A stretch of 64,000 nt of DNA, from assembly GCA_018970325.1 (NCBI GenBank), contig JAGWWP010000001.1, positions 74,570-138,569 on the forward strand. Direction: 5' to 3'. Positions 4,013 through 63,611 of this stretch are shown in pieces. The first letter of the stretch is position 1. Each line of letters starts with the position of its first letter. Position numbers and translations under genes: made by a program. The DNA comes from Cyanobacteria bacterium REEB446. GTDB taxonomy: Bacteria; Cyanobacteriota; Vampirovibrionia; LMEP-6097. The notes under the pieces are model-generated. The model was given only the letters and a program-made list of their open reading frames with translations, was not told where the DNA came from and did no database searches.

Positions 4013-4133
4013 GAGACCGCTGCACGACTCCATTTTCTGCGTTTTCGTCGTCCTCATGATCCTCATGGATGCTTGGTACACTGCGGTCATTCCTCCTCCT
4101 CAGCCTTGAAACTGCACGTTGTGCAGTGATCTC
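4013..4133 (-). repeat. Full-length ~120-bp palindromic element (RPE-like), intergenic copy
   Basis: Terminal inverted arms 4013-4028 and 4118-4133 (13/16); 94-nt core is 83/94 identical, ungapped, to the copy inside guaA. Confidence 0.92.
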
Positions 4134-4176
4134 TTTATTAGGCATATATGTTTTATGAAAATTCTCTCAGAAAAAG

Positions 4177-4347
4177 CTTAGGGGTCTTGCCTATGATTTT
4201 GTGAGATTTGGATTTGGAAAATCCTATGATTACGGAACGACATAATTACGAGGTTTTCGTGTCAGACAGGGTTATATAAACTTATAATCAGAAAATTTTA
4301 TCAAGTTTTTTTTAAAAGTACTTTTACTGCGGGGCAAGACCCCGAAG
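4177..4347. repeat. 15-bp inverted repeat pair flanking a 141-bp AT-rich segment
   Basis: cttaggggtcttgcc (4177-4191) vs ggcaagaccccgaag (4333-4347), 14/15 complementary, inner 11 bp perfect. Confidence 0.7.
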
Positions 4348-4551
4348 ATTTTTTTAAATAATAATTCAAGCTATAAGTCTTTCTGGGATTGCTTTTCGTT
4401 TAAAAAAATAGGCTTAGTTTGCTTTAGACACTGTGAAAATGAGGTTGATAGACGATTAAAGCTAAATAATCACCTGCTTTCAGCTTATCAATTAGAATAA
4501 TTACTGTTAGATAAAGGTTATTAGGTCTTCGACCCACTCGAAGGAGAGATT

Positions 4552-4755
4552 ATGTCTATGAATTGGGCACTTACTGTTGGTGCTGTTTTTGTTGCGTCTA
4601 TGGGGACTATCGCTGGAGCTTGTAAGCGTTCTGGAGCTAAGGGAAGGCAGGAAACGTCGGCTACCCCTAATAATAATGTTCCTGATAATGCGGTATCGGC
4701 ATTTTCTAATGGAAAAAGCTCACGAGATTTAGGGACAGCACTTTGTGCTGCCTGA
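4552..4755 (+). CDS. Small secreted or membrane-anchored hypothetical protein
   Basis: Good RBS (gaaggagag) before ATG; hydrophobic N-terminus followed by Cys. Confidence 0.6.
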   Translation: MSMNWALTVGAVFVASMGTIAGACKRSGAKGRQETSATPNNNVPDNAVSAFSNGKSSRDLGTALCAA

Positions 4756-4830
4756 TTCGGTATTACTTGATTTTCCTTATTTGCCCCTCCTCCCCTAACT
4801 ACTCTTTTAATTAATTTAAATCTAGATTTA

Positions 4831-5373
4831 TTGAATTCACTTTTTGATTCAAAAGAAGATCAGAATTTTAGATCATTATTTAAATATAGTGATAGATATC
4901 AATTAGATAAAGTACTTAAAAAGGAGATGGCTCTTAGTCTCAGGCAGCGTACTTACAGTGATGCGAGTTATTATGGAAGCATTGATTCTAAAGCTGCTTT
5001 AGATGTGGGAGATTCAAACCTAAGCCCAGAAGAGAAAGTTGCAAATATGATCTTAGAGCTTCAGAGCCGTGGTGCATTAACTCTTGCCGAGCAGAGTTTA
5101 ACTAATAAAGATATTGCTCAGAAACTAGGTTTAAAACCAGATCATCCAATAGTACTCGCTATCGCTGCTGGGGATTATGATTTAGCACAGGAATTATCAG
5201 TAGGACTTAATGTGGAGGCTTCTATAAACGCTATAGCGCCAGAAAATGCTATCGCGAATAAAGGTTTAGATGATGAGTGGTTAAGTATTAGTAATAGTGT
5301 TATACCAATAGAGGAAAGCAATCCCTCTAAACTCACGGGGGGCAGCAAATTCCTCAACCTCACTTTTGTCTGA
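4831..5373 (+). CDS. Hypothetical protein
   Basis: 180-aa ORF ending just before a terminator; start uncertain. Confidence 0.65.
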   Translation: MNSLFDSKEDQNFRSLFKYSDRYQLDKVLKKEMALSLRQRTYSDASYYGSIDSKAALDVGDSNLSPEEKVANMILELQSRGALTLAEQSLTNKDIAQKLGLKPDHPIVLAIAAGDYDLAQELSVGLNVEASINAIAPENAIANKGLDDEWLSISNSVIPIEESNPSKLTGGSKFLNLTFV

Positions 5374-5378
5374 AACAC

Positions 5379-60767: not shown

Positions 60768-60781
60768 TGATTAGTAGGTGG

Positions 60782-61828
60782 TTATTCCCAATCATCAACG
60801 ATTACGCCTTTAGCATAATCAGTCGCACGGGTTTCAAAGAAATTAGCATGCTCTTTTCCGTTAACCATGAGGTTCATCCAAGGTAGAGGATTCTCTTTAA
60901 TATCATAAAGTCCGTCTAGACCTAGGTCTGAAAGTCTTTTATTTGCTATGTATTTTAAATACTTCTTAACATCCTCTGGCTGTAAGCCTTCTACTGATCC
61001 TAAAGTGAAACAAGTATCGACGAAATTATTTTCTAAGCGAATCATTTCATCGCAGGCTTTATAAATTTCATCTTTAAATTCAGGAGTCCAGATTTCAGGA
61101 TTTTCTTTAATGAACTGTCTAAATAAAGCACAGACACCTTCTGAATGTAGTGACTCATCACGAATAGACCAAGTGATGATCTGCCCGACATTCTTTAATA
61201 ATCCACGTCTTGGGAAATTCATTAGGATAGCGAAGCTCGCAAATAATGCGATCCCTTCCATAAATCCACCAAATACAGCTAGGTTTTTAGCTATTTCGTG
61301 TTTACTTTCCGTTTTAAAGTTTTGAAGATATTCATATTTATTCTTCATCGCTTCATATTCACGGAAGGCACTGTATTCTACCTCTGGCAAGCCTAGAGTA
61401 TCGTTTAAATGAGAGTAGGCCCAGACATGCACTGTTTCCATGGAAGCAAAAGCTGTAAGCATCATGGCTATTTCAGGTTTAGGGAAAACTGGGATCAAGT
61501 GACTATTATAGTTATTCTGTACTTCTATATCCCCTTGAGTGAAAAATCTAAGTACTTGGATAATTAAGTTAGATTCTTGGGGAGTAAGTTTAGTTTTAAA
61601 ATCGACTAAGTCATCAGCCATAGGAACTTCTGTAGGTAGCCAGTGGGCTTGCTGCTGTAATTTAAAGTATTCAAAAAACTGAGGATATTCAAAGGGCTTA
61701 TAATGATCTCTTGGCGTTAGCATGCTTCTTTGATTGCTTTTAGCCATCTCACTTATTTTACTAGTCTCATCGACTTTACTAATTTCATTCACTTTAATTG
61801 AGTTCTCCGTAGTAGTTGTAGTCGCCAT
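60782..61828 (-). CDS. nrdB: Ribonucleotide reductase class Ia beta subunit
   Basis: YKPFEYP, HWLPTEV, metal ligands in QGD / ETVH..AY / MEG / RDESLH, NFFETR..Y. Confidence 0.95.
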   Translation of the reverse strand: MATTTTTENSIKVNEISKVDETSKISEMAKSNQRSMLTPRDHYKPFEYPQFFEYFKLQQQAHWLPTEVPMADDLVDFKTKLTPQESNLIIQVLRFFTQGDIEVQNNYNSHLIPVFPKPEIAMMLTAFASMETVHVWAYSHLNDTLGLPEVEYSAFREYEAMKNKYEYLQNFKTESKHEIAKNLAVFGGFMEGIALFASFAILMNFPRRGLLKNVGQIITWSIRDESLHSEGVCALFRQFIKENPEIWTPEFKDEIYKACDEMIRLENNFVDTCFTLGSVEGLQPEDVKKYLKYIANKRLSDLGLDGLYDIKENPLPWMNLMVNGKEHANFFETRATDYAKGVIVDDWE

Positions 61829-61849
61829 GTGTTCCTTTTATAGCTCAAA

Positions 61850-61865
61850 AAACTATATGTAGCGG
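61850..61865. promoter_or_regulatory. Putative NrdR box
   Basis: aaactatatgtagcgg resembles consensus acaCwAtATaTwGtgt; about 20 nt upstream of the nrdB ATG; no clear second box. Confidence 0.55.
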
Positions 61866-62034
61866 TTTTACCACTCTTAGTTATTTGAAAAACGCTAAAA
61901 TTCTCGTGTCCTTCTAATATATCATCAAAGTGACTCTCCGAGACAGGTAAAGCAAACTTTCTTGATGAAAAAATAATAATCTTAGTAAGGAAATTTTTAC
62001 TTGAAATTATCAAGATTATAAGGATGAATTTCTA

Positions 62035-63531
62035 TTAAATAACTTGATTAGTTTTACAGATCTCTGAATAATAGTGATAACTAGCTTTCGGAGCTCTATT
62101 ATAAGTTTCATGATCTACATGGATAAGCCCAAATCTCGGCTCCATACCTAACGCCCACTCGAAATTATCTATTAAGCTCCAATAGAAATAACCCTGAATA
62201 TTTACATTCTCTTGAATCGCCCTATGAATGGCCTCTAGGTGCCCTTTAATAAAATCTATGCGATATTTATCCTCTAAATCTTTATCTTCAGGACTGGTTT
62301 CTATGTATGAATAACCGTTTTCAGTAATAAATATAGGTTTATTCCCGAGTAGTTTTTTAAATTTCTCACTGCTTAAGACTTTATATAGACCTTCAGGGTA
62401 TATTTCCCAGCCCAGTGAATTATGCGACGATTCGCGAACTCTAGTTGCTGAATTCTCCTTGTTCTTACACTCCTTAAGTGTACTCTGTAGTTGCCCCCAT
62501 AGAAGTGAATCTAGGTCAGGGTTAGCTGGGTCTTTAGCCTGTGTCGAAAATTTATAAATGAATCTAGTATAGTAATTCACACCTAAAAAATCTAGACTGC
62601 CCATATCTAAGCATGACTCTATAAAGCTGTAGTTATGTAATTGATCTCGTATCACGGCTGGAACTAGGTCTAAATCTACTCTTCGTTTATACGGGCTGAT
62701 ATGAGATGTATTTGTTGTAGTCTCTGGCTTTATCTTAGGTTTATTACTATTTCCAGCTTCTCCTTCTTGGGACTGTTGATATGACTGAAAATAGTACATA
62801 TTCTGTGAAAAACCTACTTGGTGACTGGGGTTGTACCCTTTTATGCTTTTATAAGCTAGTTCGTGAGCTGTGAGCATGCCTTGATAGGCTTTAAAATAAC
62901 CGTTTAGATCATTCGTTTTACCAGGCGGCCAGATTCCGCTTTCATAACCGAAACCAAGAAAAATATTAGGCTCATTAAAGGTAATCCAGTACTGGATTTT
63001 CTCACCAAAATTTTCTAATAAGAATTTCACGAAGTTATTAAACTCACAGGCGGTATTAGGATTTTCCCAGCCACCTTCTTTAGCCAGCCAGTTAGGTAGA
63101 ACGAAGTGAACCAGTGTCGCAAATGGTTTAACCTTTAATCCATCTAAAAGTCTTTCGTAGAAAGCTAAAGTTTCTTCATGAAAATCATCAGGTCCTCTGT
63201 GTAAAGCTGCCCAATTGAAAGAAAATCTATAGGCGTCAGCACCTAAGTCGTTTATTAGAGTTAAATCTTCTTCTAATTTTTCATAGTGTTTAACTGCTAG
63301 TCCTGCACCATTTGGAGATTTTACTTTCTCTGGTTTGTCTAACCATTCTGCCCAATCAGAGAGCTTTTCACGATACTCATCGGGGTGACCTTCTATCTGA
63401 AAGGCTGCTGTAGCGGTTCCCCAGGTAAAATTAGTGGGAAATTCGATAGGTTTATTTTTTTTACTTTCTTTCTGGCCATTACTAAAAAAAAGATTCTCTT
63501 GTATTTTTTTAATGAGTTTAAAAATATCCAT
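62035..63531 (-). CDS. Glycoside hydrolase family 1 (beta-glucosidase-like)
   Basis: WGTATAAFQIEG, TFNEP, GVNYY, ITENG, WSLIDNFEW. Confidence 0.95.
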   Translation of the reverse strand: MDIFKLIKKIQENLFFSNGQKESKKNKPIEFPTNFTWGTATAAFQIEGHPDEYREKLSDWAEWLDKPEKVKSPNGAGLAVKHYEKLEEDLTLINDLGADAYRFSFNWAALHRGPDDFHEETLAFYERLLDGLKVKPFATLVHFVLPNWLAKEGGWENPNTACEFNNFVKFLLENFGEKIQYWITFNEPNIFLGFGYESGIWPPGKTNDLNGYFKAYQGMLTAHELAYKSIKGYNPSHQVGFSQNMYYFQSYQQSQEGEAGNSNKPKIKPETTTNTSHISPYKRRVDLDLVPAVIRDQLHNYSFIESCLDMGSLDFLGVNYYTRFIYKFSTQAKDPANPDLDSLLWGQLQSTLKECKNKENSATRVRESSHNSLGWEIYPEGLYKVLSSEKFKKLLGNKPIFITENGYSYIETSPEDKDLEDKYRIDFIKGHLEAIHRAIQENVNIQGYFYWSLIDNFEWALGMEPRFGLIHVDHETYNRAPKASYHYYSEICKTNQVI

Positions 63532-63577
63532 GCCTATATTTTATGCACAGAAAAAGTCTACGGGTTTCTAGTTAACT

Positions 63578-63611
63578 GAAAAATGTAGAAATTGGAGTTA
63601 GGTAATAGCGT
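63578..63611 (+). repeat. Decayed 3' end of the palindromic element
   Basis: aaaatgtagaaattggagtt vs aaaacgcagaaattggagtt (18/20). Confidence 0.6.

Follow-up and report, generated by a model that had tools for sequence, protein, structure and literature searches.

The question raised by this locus is what kind of element recurs along the 64-kb window (the whole stretch of DNA that was analysed), how it is spread and why its two arms vary between copies while pairing within each copy. We consider it probable that the element is a non-autonomous, MITE-like transposable element of 121 bp. In the host genome (2.25 Mb), 52 full-length copies and 193 matches in all were found with nhmmer at E<=1e-3, which bears out the high genome-wide copy number expected by a sequence-only reading of the window; the nhmmer and covariance-model scans reveal a real repeat family, far above two or three matches. 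The length is exactly 121 nt in 145 of 157 copies and 119-120 nt in the sister genus that was examined. No transposase gene lies inside the element, whose sole open frame is a 40-codon read-through frame, and its size is within the 50-800 bp of MITEs without an internal transposase gene. The tandem catgaggat proposed for the core was confirmed as CATGAGGAT, with a third unit observed in two copies from other genomes. Arm classes travel with diagnostic core variants, class A for example with GCAGTTTC and GAAAATGG. Only tRNAs matched Rfam at gathering score in the window, and the standard, tandem and long forms of the element had no Rfam match at E<=1. The hosts form a group of non-photosynthetic relatives of cyanobacteria, through whose genomes the element has spread. 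Copies of the element were also seen to break metagenome assemblies.

The window contains two full copies, four clear fragments, one marginal fragment and one further piece recognised by ortholog comparison alone. These features and their surroundings are as follows.

4013-4133, minus strand: complete 121-nt copy of arm class A (GAGA...TCTC), intergenic, with a degenerate apical hairpin
4138-4134 (ATAAA) and 4012-4008 (AAAAA): flanks of the 4013-4133 copy, the 5-mers agreeing at 4/5 positions
33370-33430, minus strand: remnant of a class-A 3' part between two convergent genes
38445-40313, plus strand: guaA (GMP synthase), 622 aa
38849-38885, plus strand: solo 3' module (DDENAEIGVPQ) directly 5' of the full guaA copy, in the same frame
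38887-38891, plus strand: left target-site duplication ATGAA of the guaA copy
38892-39012, plus strand: full 121-nt copy in guaA, sense and in frame, arm class B, encoding GTVAERASSRLRRTNDRSVLRVHEDHEDDENAEIGVPQQC
39013-39017, plus strand: right target-site duplication ATGAA of the guaA copy
39612-39692, plus strand: second lineage-specific insertion in guaA, residues 390-416, peptide SDSENAELVMHKQC, including 39651-39689
59417-59443, plus strand: 27-nt remnant identical to the class-D 3' end, 8 nt past the stop of a CNNM/CorC gene
60724-60767, minus strand: mini form with both arms and 15 nt of core, between convergent genes
63578-63611, plus strand: decayed 3' module, marginal (BLAST E 0.001 against 0.022 for the control; HMM score not above control)

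Both full copies of the sequence-only reading proved real, the one in guaA with slightly refined bounds, at nhmmer E-values of 3e-31 (4013-4133) and 1e-36 (38892-39012) and covariance-model scores of 114 and 132 bits respectively; the central hairpin described for them is preserved in guaA and disrupted at 4013-4133. Fragments were assessed by copy-level BLAST against a reversed-window control, in which the best match had an E-value of 0.022. The partial copies proposed near 33370-33427, 38853-38883 and 60724-60767 were all supported, with identical stretches at 33370-33402 (33 nt, E 1e-13), 38850-38881 (32 nt) and 60737-60761 (25 nt), each at 100%. As the minus-strand piece at 60724-60767 keeps the order 5' arm, 15 nt of core, 3' arm, it is an internally deleted mini form. 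Among the proposed decayed ends, 59417-59443 was upheld (27 nt, 100%, E 4e-10) and 63578-63611 is marginal (63580-63599, 20 nt, 95%, E 0.001), while 39651-39689 was missed by the HMM and is backed by the GuaA orthologs alone. None of the weaker candidates at 14024-14040, 57050-57073, 60113-60146 and 62424-62485 exceeded the controls. Fragments at many stages of decay are therefore present, as had been claimed.

The view that no target-site duplication is visible was found to be wrong, since ATGAA stands on either side of the guaA copy and a perfect 5/5 repeat flanks 40 of 149 full copies across the family. Agreement at 4/5 positions or better was observed for 79/149, and random pairing of flanks gave a mean of 2.0 perfect repeats and a maximum of 7 in 1000 trials. 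The signal occurs solely at k=5 and at the exact element boundaries, and the duplicated pentamers are A/T-rich. In genus g2, seven of 13 copies have a perfect 5-bp duplication against a chance mean of 0.23. A duplication of 5 bp is within the 2-10 bp known for MITEs, and its fixed length implies an enzyme that makes a staggered 5-bp double-strand cut at the target. Filled and empty sites, a further property of MITEs, were observed between relatives: of 105 copies from related genomes, 78 have collinear flanks in the host genome and 24 of these sites differ by about 110-139 bp, that is, they are empty in the host. Where the empty site is cleanly resolved the difference is 126 bp, with arms and core both missing.

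The element of 121 nt and its 5-bp duplication add up to 126 bp, or 42 codons. Through this exact addition, about half of the copies sit harmlessly in protein-coding genes. Long open frames are spanned by 27/52 full copies in the host genome and by 50/105 at related loci, and all but one of the full copies in long frames are in plus orientation and frame 0. At the level of all matches, 86 of 193 lie in long frames, every one on the sense strand (86/86), and 68 of the 1706 long frames of the host carry a match. The peptide read from the one stop-free sense frame is very hydrophilic, basic over its first half and acidic over its second. Insertions in this frame would survive selection and those in other frames or antisense would be purged, and survival of this kind could account for an element-derived peptide in about 4% of long open frames, as with the palindromic elements of Rickettsia. 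In other genera, where few copies were examined, few were inside long open frames. Intergenic copies were observed to cluster a few bases from gene 3' ends, often between convergent genes.

The gene guaA illustrates how such a gene is invaded. Its product here has 622 aa, where other genera of the family have 526-547 aa, and its frame has stayed intact through two element-derived insertions. An ortholog alignment shows that some species have the insertion, some a partly deleted form and some none, the frame always being kept. The second insertion, of about 27 residues (GuaA 390-416), is found in four of six genus-g1 GuaA proteins and in none of eight from six other genera; the peptide SDSENAELVMHKQC resembles the 3' module of the element, 39651-39689 is invisible to the HMM, and 39612-39692 is probably a decayed remnant. 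In a GuaA model that is confident elsewhere, the segments with pLDDT under 50 coincide exactly with the inserted residues 133-190 and 390-416. The solo 3' module and the adjoining full copy have the same unusual 3'-arm variant, which suggests that the module arose by local partial duplication.

The whole element folds on its plus strand into a single rod-like hairpin. At its base, a terminal stem of 16 bp is almost unconstrained in sequence, with several pair types at each of the 16 arm pairs, and is followed by a short stem with a conserved G.A. In the purine-rich stem, four tandem G.A/A.G pairs are spaced by single covarying Watson-Crick pairs, and the tip is an apical hairpin with a closing G.U that is invariant in 47/47 sequences. 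Our alignments show that the covariation of the arms is genuine, far exceeding what shuffled or slid controls give, and that arms which vary between copies do pair within each copy, as first described. In alignment A1, 92.1% of cells pair compared with 79.1% after shuffling (0/500 shuffles as high) and both-sided changes occur in 31/39 pairs. In alignment A2, which holds 47 sequences from at least six genera, the values are 95.0% and 61.9%, with slid controls at 30-40% and double changes in 36/39 pairs. Within the 16-bp terminal arms, 83% (A1) and 94% (A2) of the cells are paired. Arm variation between copies is greatest in genus g10. The arms exceed the 10-15 bp of terminal inverted repeats that MITEs have at the least, but their unconserved sequence is atypical and is a point against the MITE-like reading, as it is unusual for ends that a transposase recognises. 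The mobilising enzyme would recognise the conserved core and/or the fold and not the sequence of the termini.

Another explanation of the arms, which we regard as possible but on the whole unlikely, is that their complementarity is kept by mutation and not by selection, one arm being copied onto the other by quasi-palindrome template switching. This process is known from E. coli. Arm complementarity was observed to be without strand bias, with about 97 G.U and 86 A.C cells in a hand tally, as would be expected of a process at the DNA level. The core fold is strand-specific. Template switching leaves unexplained both the covariation of the inner stem between the conserved G.A pairs and the fixed length of the element, and it is compatible with the MITE-like reading and does not replace it.

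More tentatively still, the rod may be a functional nucleic-acid structure. A candidate enzyme conserved in the lineage would read its shape, measure from the G.A-rich core, cut the stem base of free sequence and leave the 5-bp duplication, and the copies, including those in mRNAs, would be under purifying selection through their use as RNA or ssDNA by the host or the element. A rather improbable view is that the element is mainly a structured RNA useful to the host, either a 3'-end stabiliser or terminator or a protein-binding rod, which is spread by transposition and whose copies are kept by selection. Among 11 orthologous pairs, not all of them independent, identity is 96.6% in the core and 90.1% in the arms compared with 82.2% at third codon positions of coding flanks. 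Such slow divergence is not what a purely selfish decaying element would predict, except where its copies are homogenised by gene conversion; with more than 50 copies, conversion could indeed slow the apparent divergence of these 11 partly non-independent pairs. A host role would also agree with the presence of the element in 28/29 genomes of the family (covariance model) and in two further families, with the invariant closing G.U and the conserved non-Watson-Crick motifs, with the greater stability of the plus-strand fold in 142/145 copies and with the location of intergenic copies near gene 3' ends, often between convergent genes. Element copies occur in RNA-library contigs, where DNA carry-over is possible. 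Against this, the six intergenic copies between same-direction genes were judged by eye to be three sense and three antisense, about half of all copies are inside open reading frames, many are visibly decaying and Rfam has no match at E<=1.

A search for the mobilising enzyme among the family genomes found no autonomous partner and no transposase with matching ends, and no Tn3, rve, HUH (Y1), IS110 or reverse-transcriptase gene tracks the distribution of the element in the family; these genomes are MAGs of 54-96% completeness, in which the absence of a gene is weak evidence. The sole clear IS in the host genome has ends unrelated to the element. Genes for rve were found in 17/30 family genomes and are missing from five element-bearing genera. 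A Tn3-derived miniature element (TIME) was rejected: the 5-bp duplication fits, but Tn3-type genes (PF01526) were found in 0/30 family genomes, and a resemblance of the ends to Tn3 repeats (38-bp inverted repeats in TIMEs) is unsupported. The partners proposed by the sequence-only reading (HUH/RAYT, IS200/605, IS110 or reverse transcriptase) did not hold up in genus g1, whose copies are the most numerous and the youngest: Y1_Tnp was detected in 0/7 genomes, IS110 in 1/7 and reverse transcriptase in 1/7.

Transposition through ssDNA by a REP/RAYT-like or IS200/IS605-like route, with the hairpin recognised by a HUH tyrosine transposase, is accordingly very unlikely. The strand-specific fold, the complementary arms that do not depend on sequence and the lack of a classical conserved terminal inverted repeat would suit it, as would Y1_Tnp genes (HUH, PF01797) of about 300 aa in 18/30 family genomes. 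They were not found, however, in any of the seven g1 genomes or in the one genome of each of two other carrier genera (0/1 each), and the 5-bp target-site duplication is fixed; HUH single-strand transposition is not known to leave such a duplication. Of the earlier suggestion that folded ssDNA or RNA is mobilised as in REP or RPE elements, the likeness to RPEs stands through the in-frame copies, and the REP/RAYT route does not.

The element decays through internal deletions that join short direct repeats and through loss of its 5' part. Matches to the 3' module are about double those to the 5' part (156-160 versus 84-85 per model position), and 84 solo 3' modules were counted, more than the 5' remnants. 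This excess and the stable RNA fold would be expected of a SINE-like retroelement, with folded RNA copied by a reverse transcriptase and frequent 5' truncation, which we hold to be still less probable than the ssDNA route. Solo 3' modules show no excess of duplications at the truncation point (4/84 against a control mean of 5.4), the duplication length is fixed, RVT_1 is found in 6/30 family genomes and 1/7 in g1, and the guaA comparison shows that solos can form in place by deletion or duplication. Many of them are left by local partial duplications, and the origin of the solo 3' modules is only partly accounted for. Insertion of the core alone into loops of pre-existing palindromes, the arms being target sequence, would fit arms that vary from copy to copy, above all in g10, but can practically be dismissed, being refuted for genus g1 by empty orthologous sites that lack arms and core alike with a 126-bp difference where clean, and opposed by the linkage of arm classes to core variants (GCAGTTTC and GAAAATGG with class A) and by 5-bp repeats that lie outside the arms.

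In about 4% of the host's long open frames the element adds segments of 14-56 residues, which matters for annotation and structure prediction, and it offers an unusually clean case, outside Rickettsia, of a mobile element colonising protein-coding genes. The arithmetic of gene invasion is simple, with element and duplication making 42 codons in one hydrophilic stop-free frame. The ends of the repeat are free in sequence yet bound to pair, its purine-rich core with tandem G.A pairs is conserved across the family, and none of the known transposases follows its distribution. This makes it possible to test directly which enzyme is at work and whether ssDNA or RNA is the active form.

In comparison with known systems, membership of the REP/REPIN-RAYT group was rejected. 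REPs and REPINs are likewise abundant hairpin repeats, long kept in a lineage and clustered at gene ends, but they are 20-40 bp and tied to a single-copy HUH gene, whereas the present element has 121 nt and a 5-bp duplication, and no HUH gene was found in 7/7 g1 genomes. Classical MITEs (Correia/NEMIS, Nezha, QMITE and others) share the small size, terminal inverted repeats, a target duplication, a high copy number, sites that are filled in one relative and empty in another, and a transcript with a stable stem-loop. They differ in having conserved termini that match a parent IS, whereas the termini here are free but pairing, conservation lies in the interior and a parent IS was not found in the incomplete MAGs. 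No transposase is known to be assigned to bcr1 of the Bacillus cereus group, which is described as intergenic and transcribed and belongs to another phylum, whereas half of the copies here are coding; the likeness is one of description. This repeat is about 155 bp with 5-bp direct repeats, a non-conserved genomic distribution and compensatory base changes that keep its double-stranded structure (PMC3184786); the flanking repeats and compensatory changes are shared with the present element. RPEs are palindromic, about 105-150 bp long and in frame in unrelated housekeeping genes for about half of their copies. The present element resembles them as a small palindromic repeat with a high share of in-frame insertions that add a peptide to protein genes and leave these unbroken (86/193 matches, 68 ORFs). 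It differs in its host (Vampirovibrionia/Melainabacteria and not Rickettsia), its clear 5-bp duplication, its exact 126-bp unit and a core conserved across a bacterial family. As RPEs were compared by description, the element would best be filed as working like an RPE and not as a member of that group. It is probably a new MITE-like family that works like RPEs in its in-frame insertions and like bcr1 in its 5-bp repeats and compensatory changes.

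Pairwise comparison of the two full stretches named by the sequence-only reading revealed homology over 121 nt. An HMM was trained on 48 full copies from the window's own genome (2.25 Mb, 97 contigs, 35.6% G+C, 93% complete) and returned 193 matches there at E<=1e-3, comprising 52 full-length copies, 102 3'-only, 33 5'-only and 6 other matches that together occupy 0.57% of the genome. The expectation of a high copy number was therefore borne out. Copies in the window were judged with this HMM and with copy-by-copy BLAST, the reversed window serving as control:

4013-4133, minus strand: full copy, intergenic, confirmed
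38892-39012, plus strand: full copy within guaA, confirmed
33370-33430: fragment, confirmed
38849-38885: fragment, confirmed
59417-59443: fragment, confirmed
60724-60767: fragment, confirmed
63578-63611: marginal fragment
39651-39689: fragment supported by ortholog comparison only

Both full copies and the clear partial copies first noticed from 33370, 38853 and 60724 are thus genuine. Among the proposed decayed ends, 59417-59443 holds, 63578-63611 is marginal and 39651-39689 depends on the ortholog comparison, while the weaker candidates (14024-14040, 57050-57073, 60113-60146 and 62424-62485) did not rise above the reversed-window control. The candidate at 14024-14040 was rejected as an element fragment; it adjoins the second of two tRNA-Arg genes, which are located at 9527-9603 (+) and 14067-14143 (-) and carry anticodons TCT and CCT. 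A tyrosine recombinase ORF at 2893-3906 (+), with Phage_integrase and SAM-like N-terminal domains, ends 107 nt from the intergenic copy, and a perfect terminator-like hairpin (AAAAAGGGCTGA..TCAGCCCTTTTT, 3975-4010) lies between them. No link of this ORF or hairpin to the element was found.

The fold, derived from RNAalifold, mutual information and hand inspection, is a single rod. P1 is formed by the terminal arms (16 bp) and P2 by CAAGTTC and GAAATTG with a conserved G.A that is displaced by one position in arm class A. P3 consists of single Watson-Crick pairs at every third position, spaced by four tandem G.A/A.G pairs, and continues into ATGACC paired with GGATCAT, while P4 is a G.U-closed apical hairpin. 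Pairing reached 92.1% of cells in 110 sequences drawn from two genera and 79.1% after shuffling, with none of 500 shuffles attaining the observed value; slid controls paired in 28-41% of cells, and double-sided changes occurred in 31 of 39 pairs. For 47 sequences from at least six genera, in an alignment made by the model and hence biased towards it, pairing was 95.0% against 61.9% with double-sided changes in 36 of 39 pairs. The spaced single pairs covary too (for example C-G 32, U-A 8, A-U 3 and G-C 3 in the 47 sequences) and the closing G.U of P4 is invariant (47/47). In some lineages a tandem G.A has given way to Watson-Crick pairs, which argues for a real helix. Between orthologous copies we found three kept double changes, all from one diverged pair and too few to weigh.

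For the guaA copy, energy minimisation returned the rod itself (-42.9 kcal/mol, z -4.15; opposite strand -31.3). Of 145 copies, 142 were more stable on the plus strand under RNA parameters and 141 under DNA parameters. Rfam contained nothing resembling the element. Hammerhead-like motifs (CUGANGA ... GAAA) picked out by eye were rejected, as the helix II positions are unpaired and Rfam gave no match. The claim that the arms are complementary within each copy yet copy-specific is upheld, with pairing far above both shuffled and slid controls. Template switching can copy one arm onto the other by mutation, and such a process, rather than selection, might maintain the complementarity. By hand tally G.U and A.C cells are about equal in number in the arms, so that arm pairing has no strand preference; this would fit template switching, which we consider less likely than not for the arms.

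Insertion leaves a duplication of five bases, contrary to the earlier impression that no target-site duplication is visible. Of 149 copies, 40 carry the same five bases outside positions 1 and 121 and 79 agree at four or more of the five, whereas in 1000 trials with left and right flanks paired at random perfect matches averaged 2.0 and never exceeded 7. The same copies gave no signal for duplications of 2-4 or 6-10 bases or at shifted boundaries. The guaA copy has ATGAA at either side and the intergenic copy is flanked by ATAAA and AAAAA; the pentamers targeted are rich in A/T and approximate [A/C][T/A][G/A]A[T/A]. In a second genus (g2), copies with GAGAC-type ends showed perfect 5-bp repeats in 7 of 13 cases against a chance mean of 0.23. 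An automatic boundary scan gave no clear signal in three further genera (g9, g7 and g4), where boundaries are class-dependent and TA can be read as arm or as repeat.

Empty sites were sought with 105 copies from related genomes having flanks 85-97% identical to the window's genome, 78 of which are collinear there. About 13 of these sites are also filled in the window's genome, 24 differ by about 110-139 bp and are empty in it, and the remainder are partial, longer or rearranged forms. Cleanly resolved empty sites differ by 126 bp and hold a single copy of the pentamer without arms or core, so the arms are part of the element and not target-derived. The length is exactly 121 nt in 145 of the 157 full copies, so an insertion adds 126 bp, or 42 codons.

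Two of the six reading frames are usually open across the element, plus frame 0 (+0) in 137 of 157 copies and minus frame 0 (-0) in 115 of 157. Our count of coding and intergenic copies and of the frames used found about half to be coding, nearly all in the sense +0 frame. Full copies span long open frames in 27 of 52 cases in the window's genome and in 50 of 105 related loci, all but one in +0. Across all matches in that genome, 86 of 193 fall within frames that run for at least 150 codons without a stop; they occupy 68 of the 1706 frames of this kind, and every one of the 86 is in sense orientation. The 3' module alone (solo) lies in ORFs in 44 of 84 cases, again always sense, with 40 of the 44 in the same frame. 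A third CATGAGGAT unit brings two copies to 130 nt, a length that still keeps the frame. The +0 peptide, with a GRAVY of -1.31, is very hydrophilic; its net charge is +6 over the first half and -7 over the second. The -0 peptide (score -0.32) is rich in Pro, Cys and Phe. Insertions in other frames and in antisense orientation are probably purged by selection. Non-coding copies are located a few bases from gene ends, frequently between convergent genes, and some copies at gene ends provide a new stop codon. The g2 element is 119-120 nt long, and only about 7 of 45 copies from seven other genera (two families) lie within long frames; the length of 121 nt may have made coding sequence accessible to the element.

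The guaA ORF (38445-40313) encodes a GMP synthase of 622 aa, compared with 526-547 aa in the family's other genera. Alignment of GuaA proteins places insertions at two sites, the first within the glutamine amidotransferase domain. This first site carries a solo 3' module with a full copy after it in the window's genome and in G025, a solo with an internally deleted copy in G028, and a single 3' module in G024 and G027; it is empty in G026 and in eight GuaA proteins from six other genera. The second insertion (about 27 residues, 390-416) was found only in four genomes of the window's genus and its peptide is similar to the 3' module. In an AlphaFold2 model built on 20 orthologs the enzyme core is confident, with pLDDT under 50 precisely over residues 133-190 and 390-416 and low confidence in a few other short segments, which fits the modelled insertions being loops outside the enzyme fold. 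In contigs from public metagenome and metatranscriptome runs, DNA contigs end at the repeat and none of the RNA contigs spans a guaA junction; the runs examined, all in contig form, are therefore uninformative on whether the mRNA retains the insert. One metatranscriptome library has contigs with element copies from other loci. Over window positions 38841-39026, summed contig depth in two freshwater metagenomes is hundreds of times higher on the element than on the guaA flanks, and assemblies break at it; the element family is abundant in both communities and fragments MAGs.

Matches per model position are 156-160 over the 3' module against 84-85 over the 5' part. The 84 solo 3' modules show no duplication where they are truncated, with 4 matches against a control mean of 5.4. 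Where a solo stands exactly five bases before a full copy, private variants are often common to both, as in guaA and in an array on contig C60. Such sequences, the guaA series among them, point to solos arising by local partial duplication and then deletion between repeated modules. The 5' halves retain the last 6-8 bases of the 3' arm, short forms show a deletion between TGAGGA repeats, and mini forms comprise the arms plus CGAAAACGCAGAAATTGGAGTT. About 12 long-form copies in the window's genome carry extra structured sequence in the P4 apex, leaving about 60-75 nt between HMM half-hits; this insert has its own covarying small hairpins (for example at C94:3257-3448, C42:11995-12181 and C20:38827-39020) and no Rfam match. 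In genus g10 the corresponding position is taken by a different insert (L126, L129 and L133). Pairs of 5'-only and 3'-only matches within 8 kb, considered as traces of an autonomous element, were rejected: close pairs are long-form copies and distant ones are unrelated.

BLAST detected the element in all 7 genomes of the window's genus and in all 3 of another, where almost each copy has its own complementary arm pair. When 151 genomes sampled from the class were scanned with a covariance model, 35 were positive: 28 of the 29 from the window's family, the single genome from a second family, 5 of 17 from a third and none of the 103 from eight others. Five genomes searched in depth had 26-58 matches apiece. 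The exact core 26-mer occurs in MAGs labelled Vampirovibrionia, Candidatus Melainabacteria and Candidatus Caenarcaniphilales; viral contigs gave 0 exact matches. At three loci of G064, a genome of another family (L157, L162 and L167), the terminal stem (cttgc...gcaag) continues for 5 bp or more outside the 121-nt model and the unit there is consequently longer. Arm classes coincide with diagnostic core variants, a pattern suggestive of subfamilies spread from master copies. For 11 orthologous pairs, a small and not fully independent sample, identity was 92.3% in flanks, 96.6% in the core and 90.1% in the arms, while coding flanks were 95.4%, 97.5% and 82.2% identical at codon positions 1, 2 and 3. 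Measured against position 3, resident copies diverge several times more slowly than near-neutral sites, reflecting either purifying selection or gene conversion.

Transposases were searched in 30 genomes of the family, all of them MAGs from which repeats and plasmids may be missing. A link to a HUH/RAYT, IS110 or reverse transcriptase gene was not supported: Y1 HUH occurs in 18 of 30 genomes yet in 0 of 7 of the main genus, reverse transcriptase in 6 of 30 and IS110 in 8 of 30. Most of the family's genera (G001-G023) have 1-6 copies of the Y1 ORF (about 300 aa). The rve domain occurs in 17 of 30 genomes and is missing from five element-carrying genera. Tn3-like ends were not supported, the Tn3 transposase (PF01526) being found in 0 of 30 genomes. 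The only clear IS of the window's genome is ISAs1-like (DDE_Tnp_1; C50:7-1266 and the end of C56, at contig ends), and it was rejected as parent since its ends, CAGGGCTGTCTCA, are unrelated to the 121-nt element. Self-BLAST of multi-copy genes in this genome found no other multi-copy transposase, only TPR proteins, unknowns and a repeated ORF family of 520-560 aa. Members of the latter (C96:378-1931, C62:36026-37717 and C62:31551-32494) share 85-88% DNA identity, and one copy terminates 3 nt from an element copy.

The titles and main text searched gave no account of repeats in these lineages. Neither Melainabacteria nor Vampirovibrio occurs in the main text of PMC11602168, although its supplementary tables might list such genomes; for Melainabacteria the MITE literature yielded only an IS survey, and no Caenarcaniphilales paper concerned repeats by title. 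The element agrees with the general description of MITEs, apart from lacking conserved ends and an identified parent IS. In reviews, bcr1 is described with 5-bp direct repeats and compensatory changes, both of which are also present here, and RPE with in-frame insertion for about half of the copies, the same behaviour as that of the 121-nt element. We therefore file it as a new MITE-like family working like an RPE.
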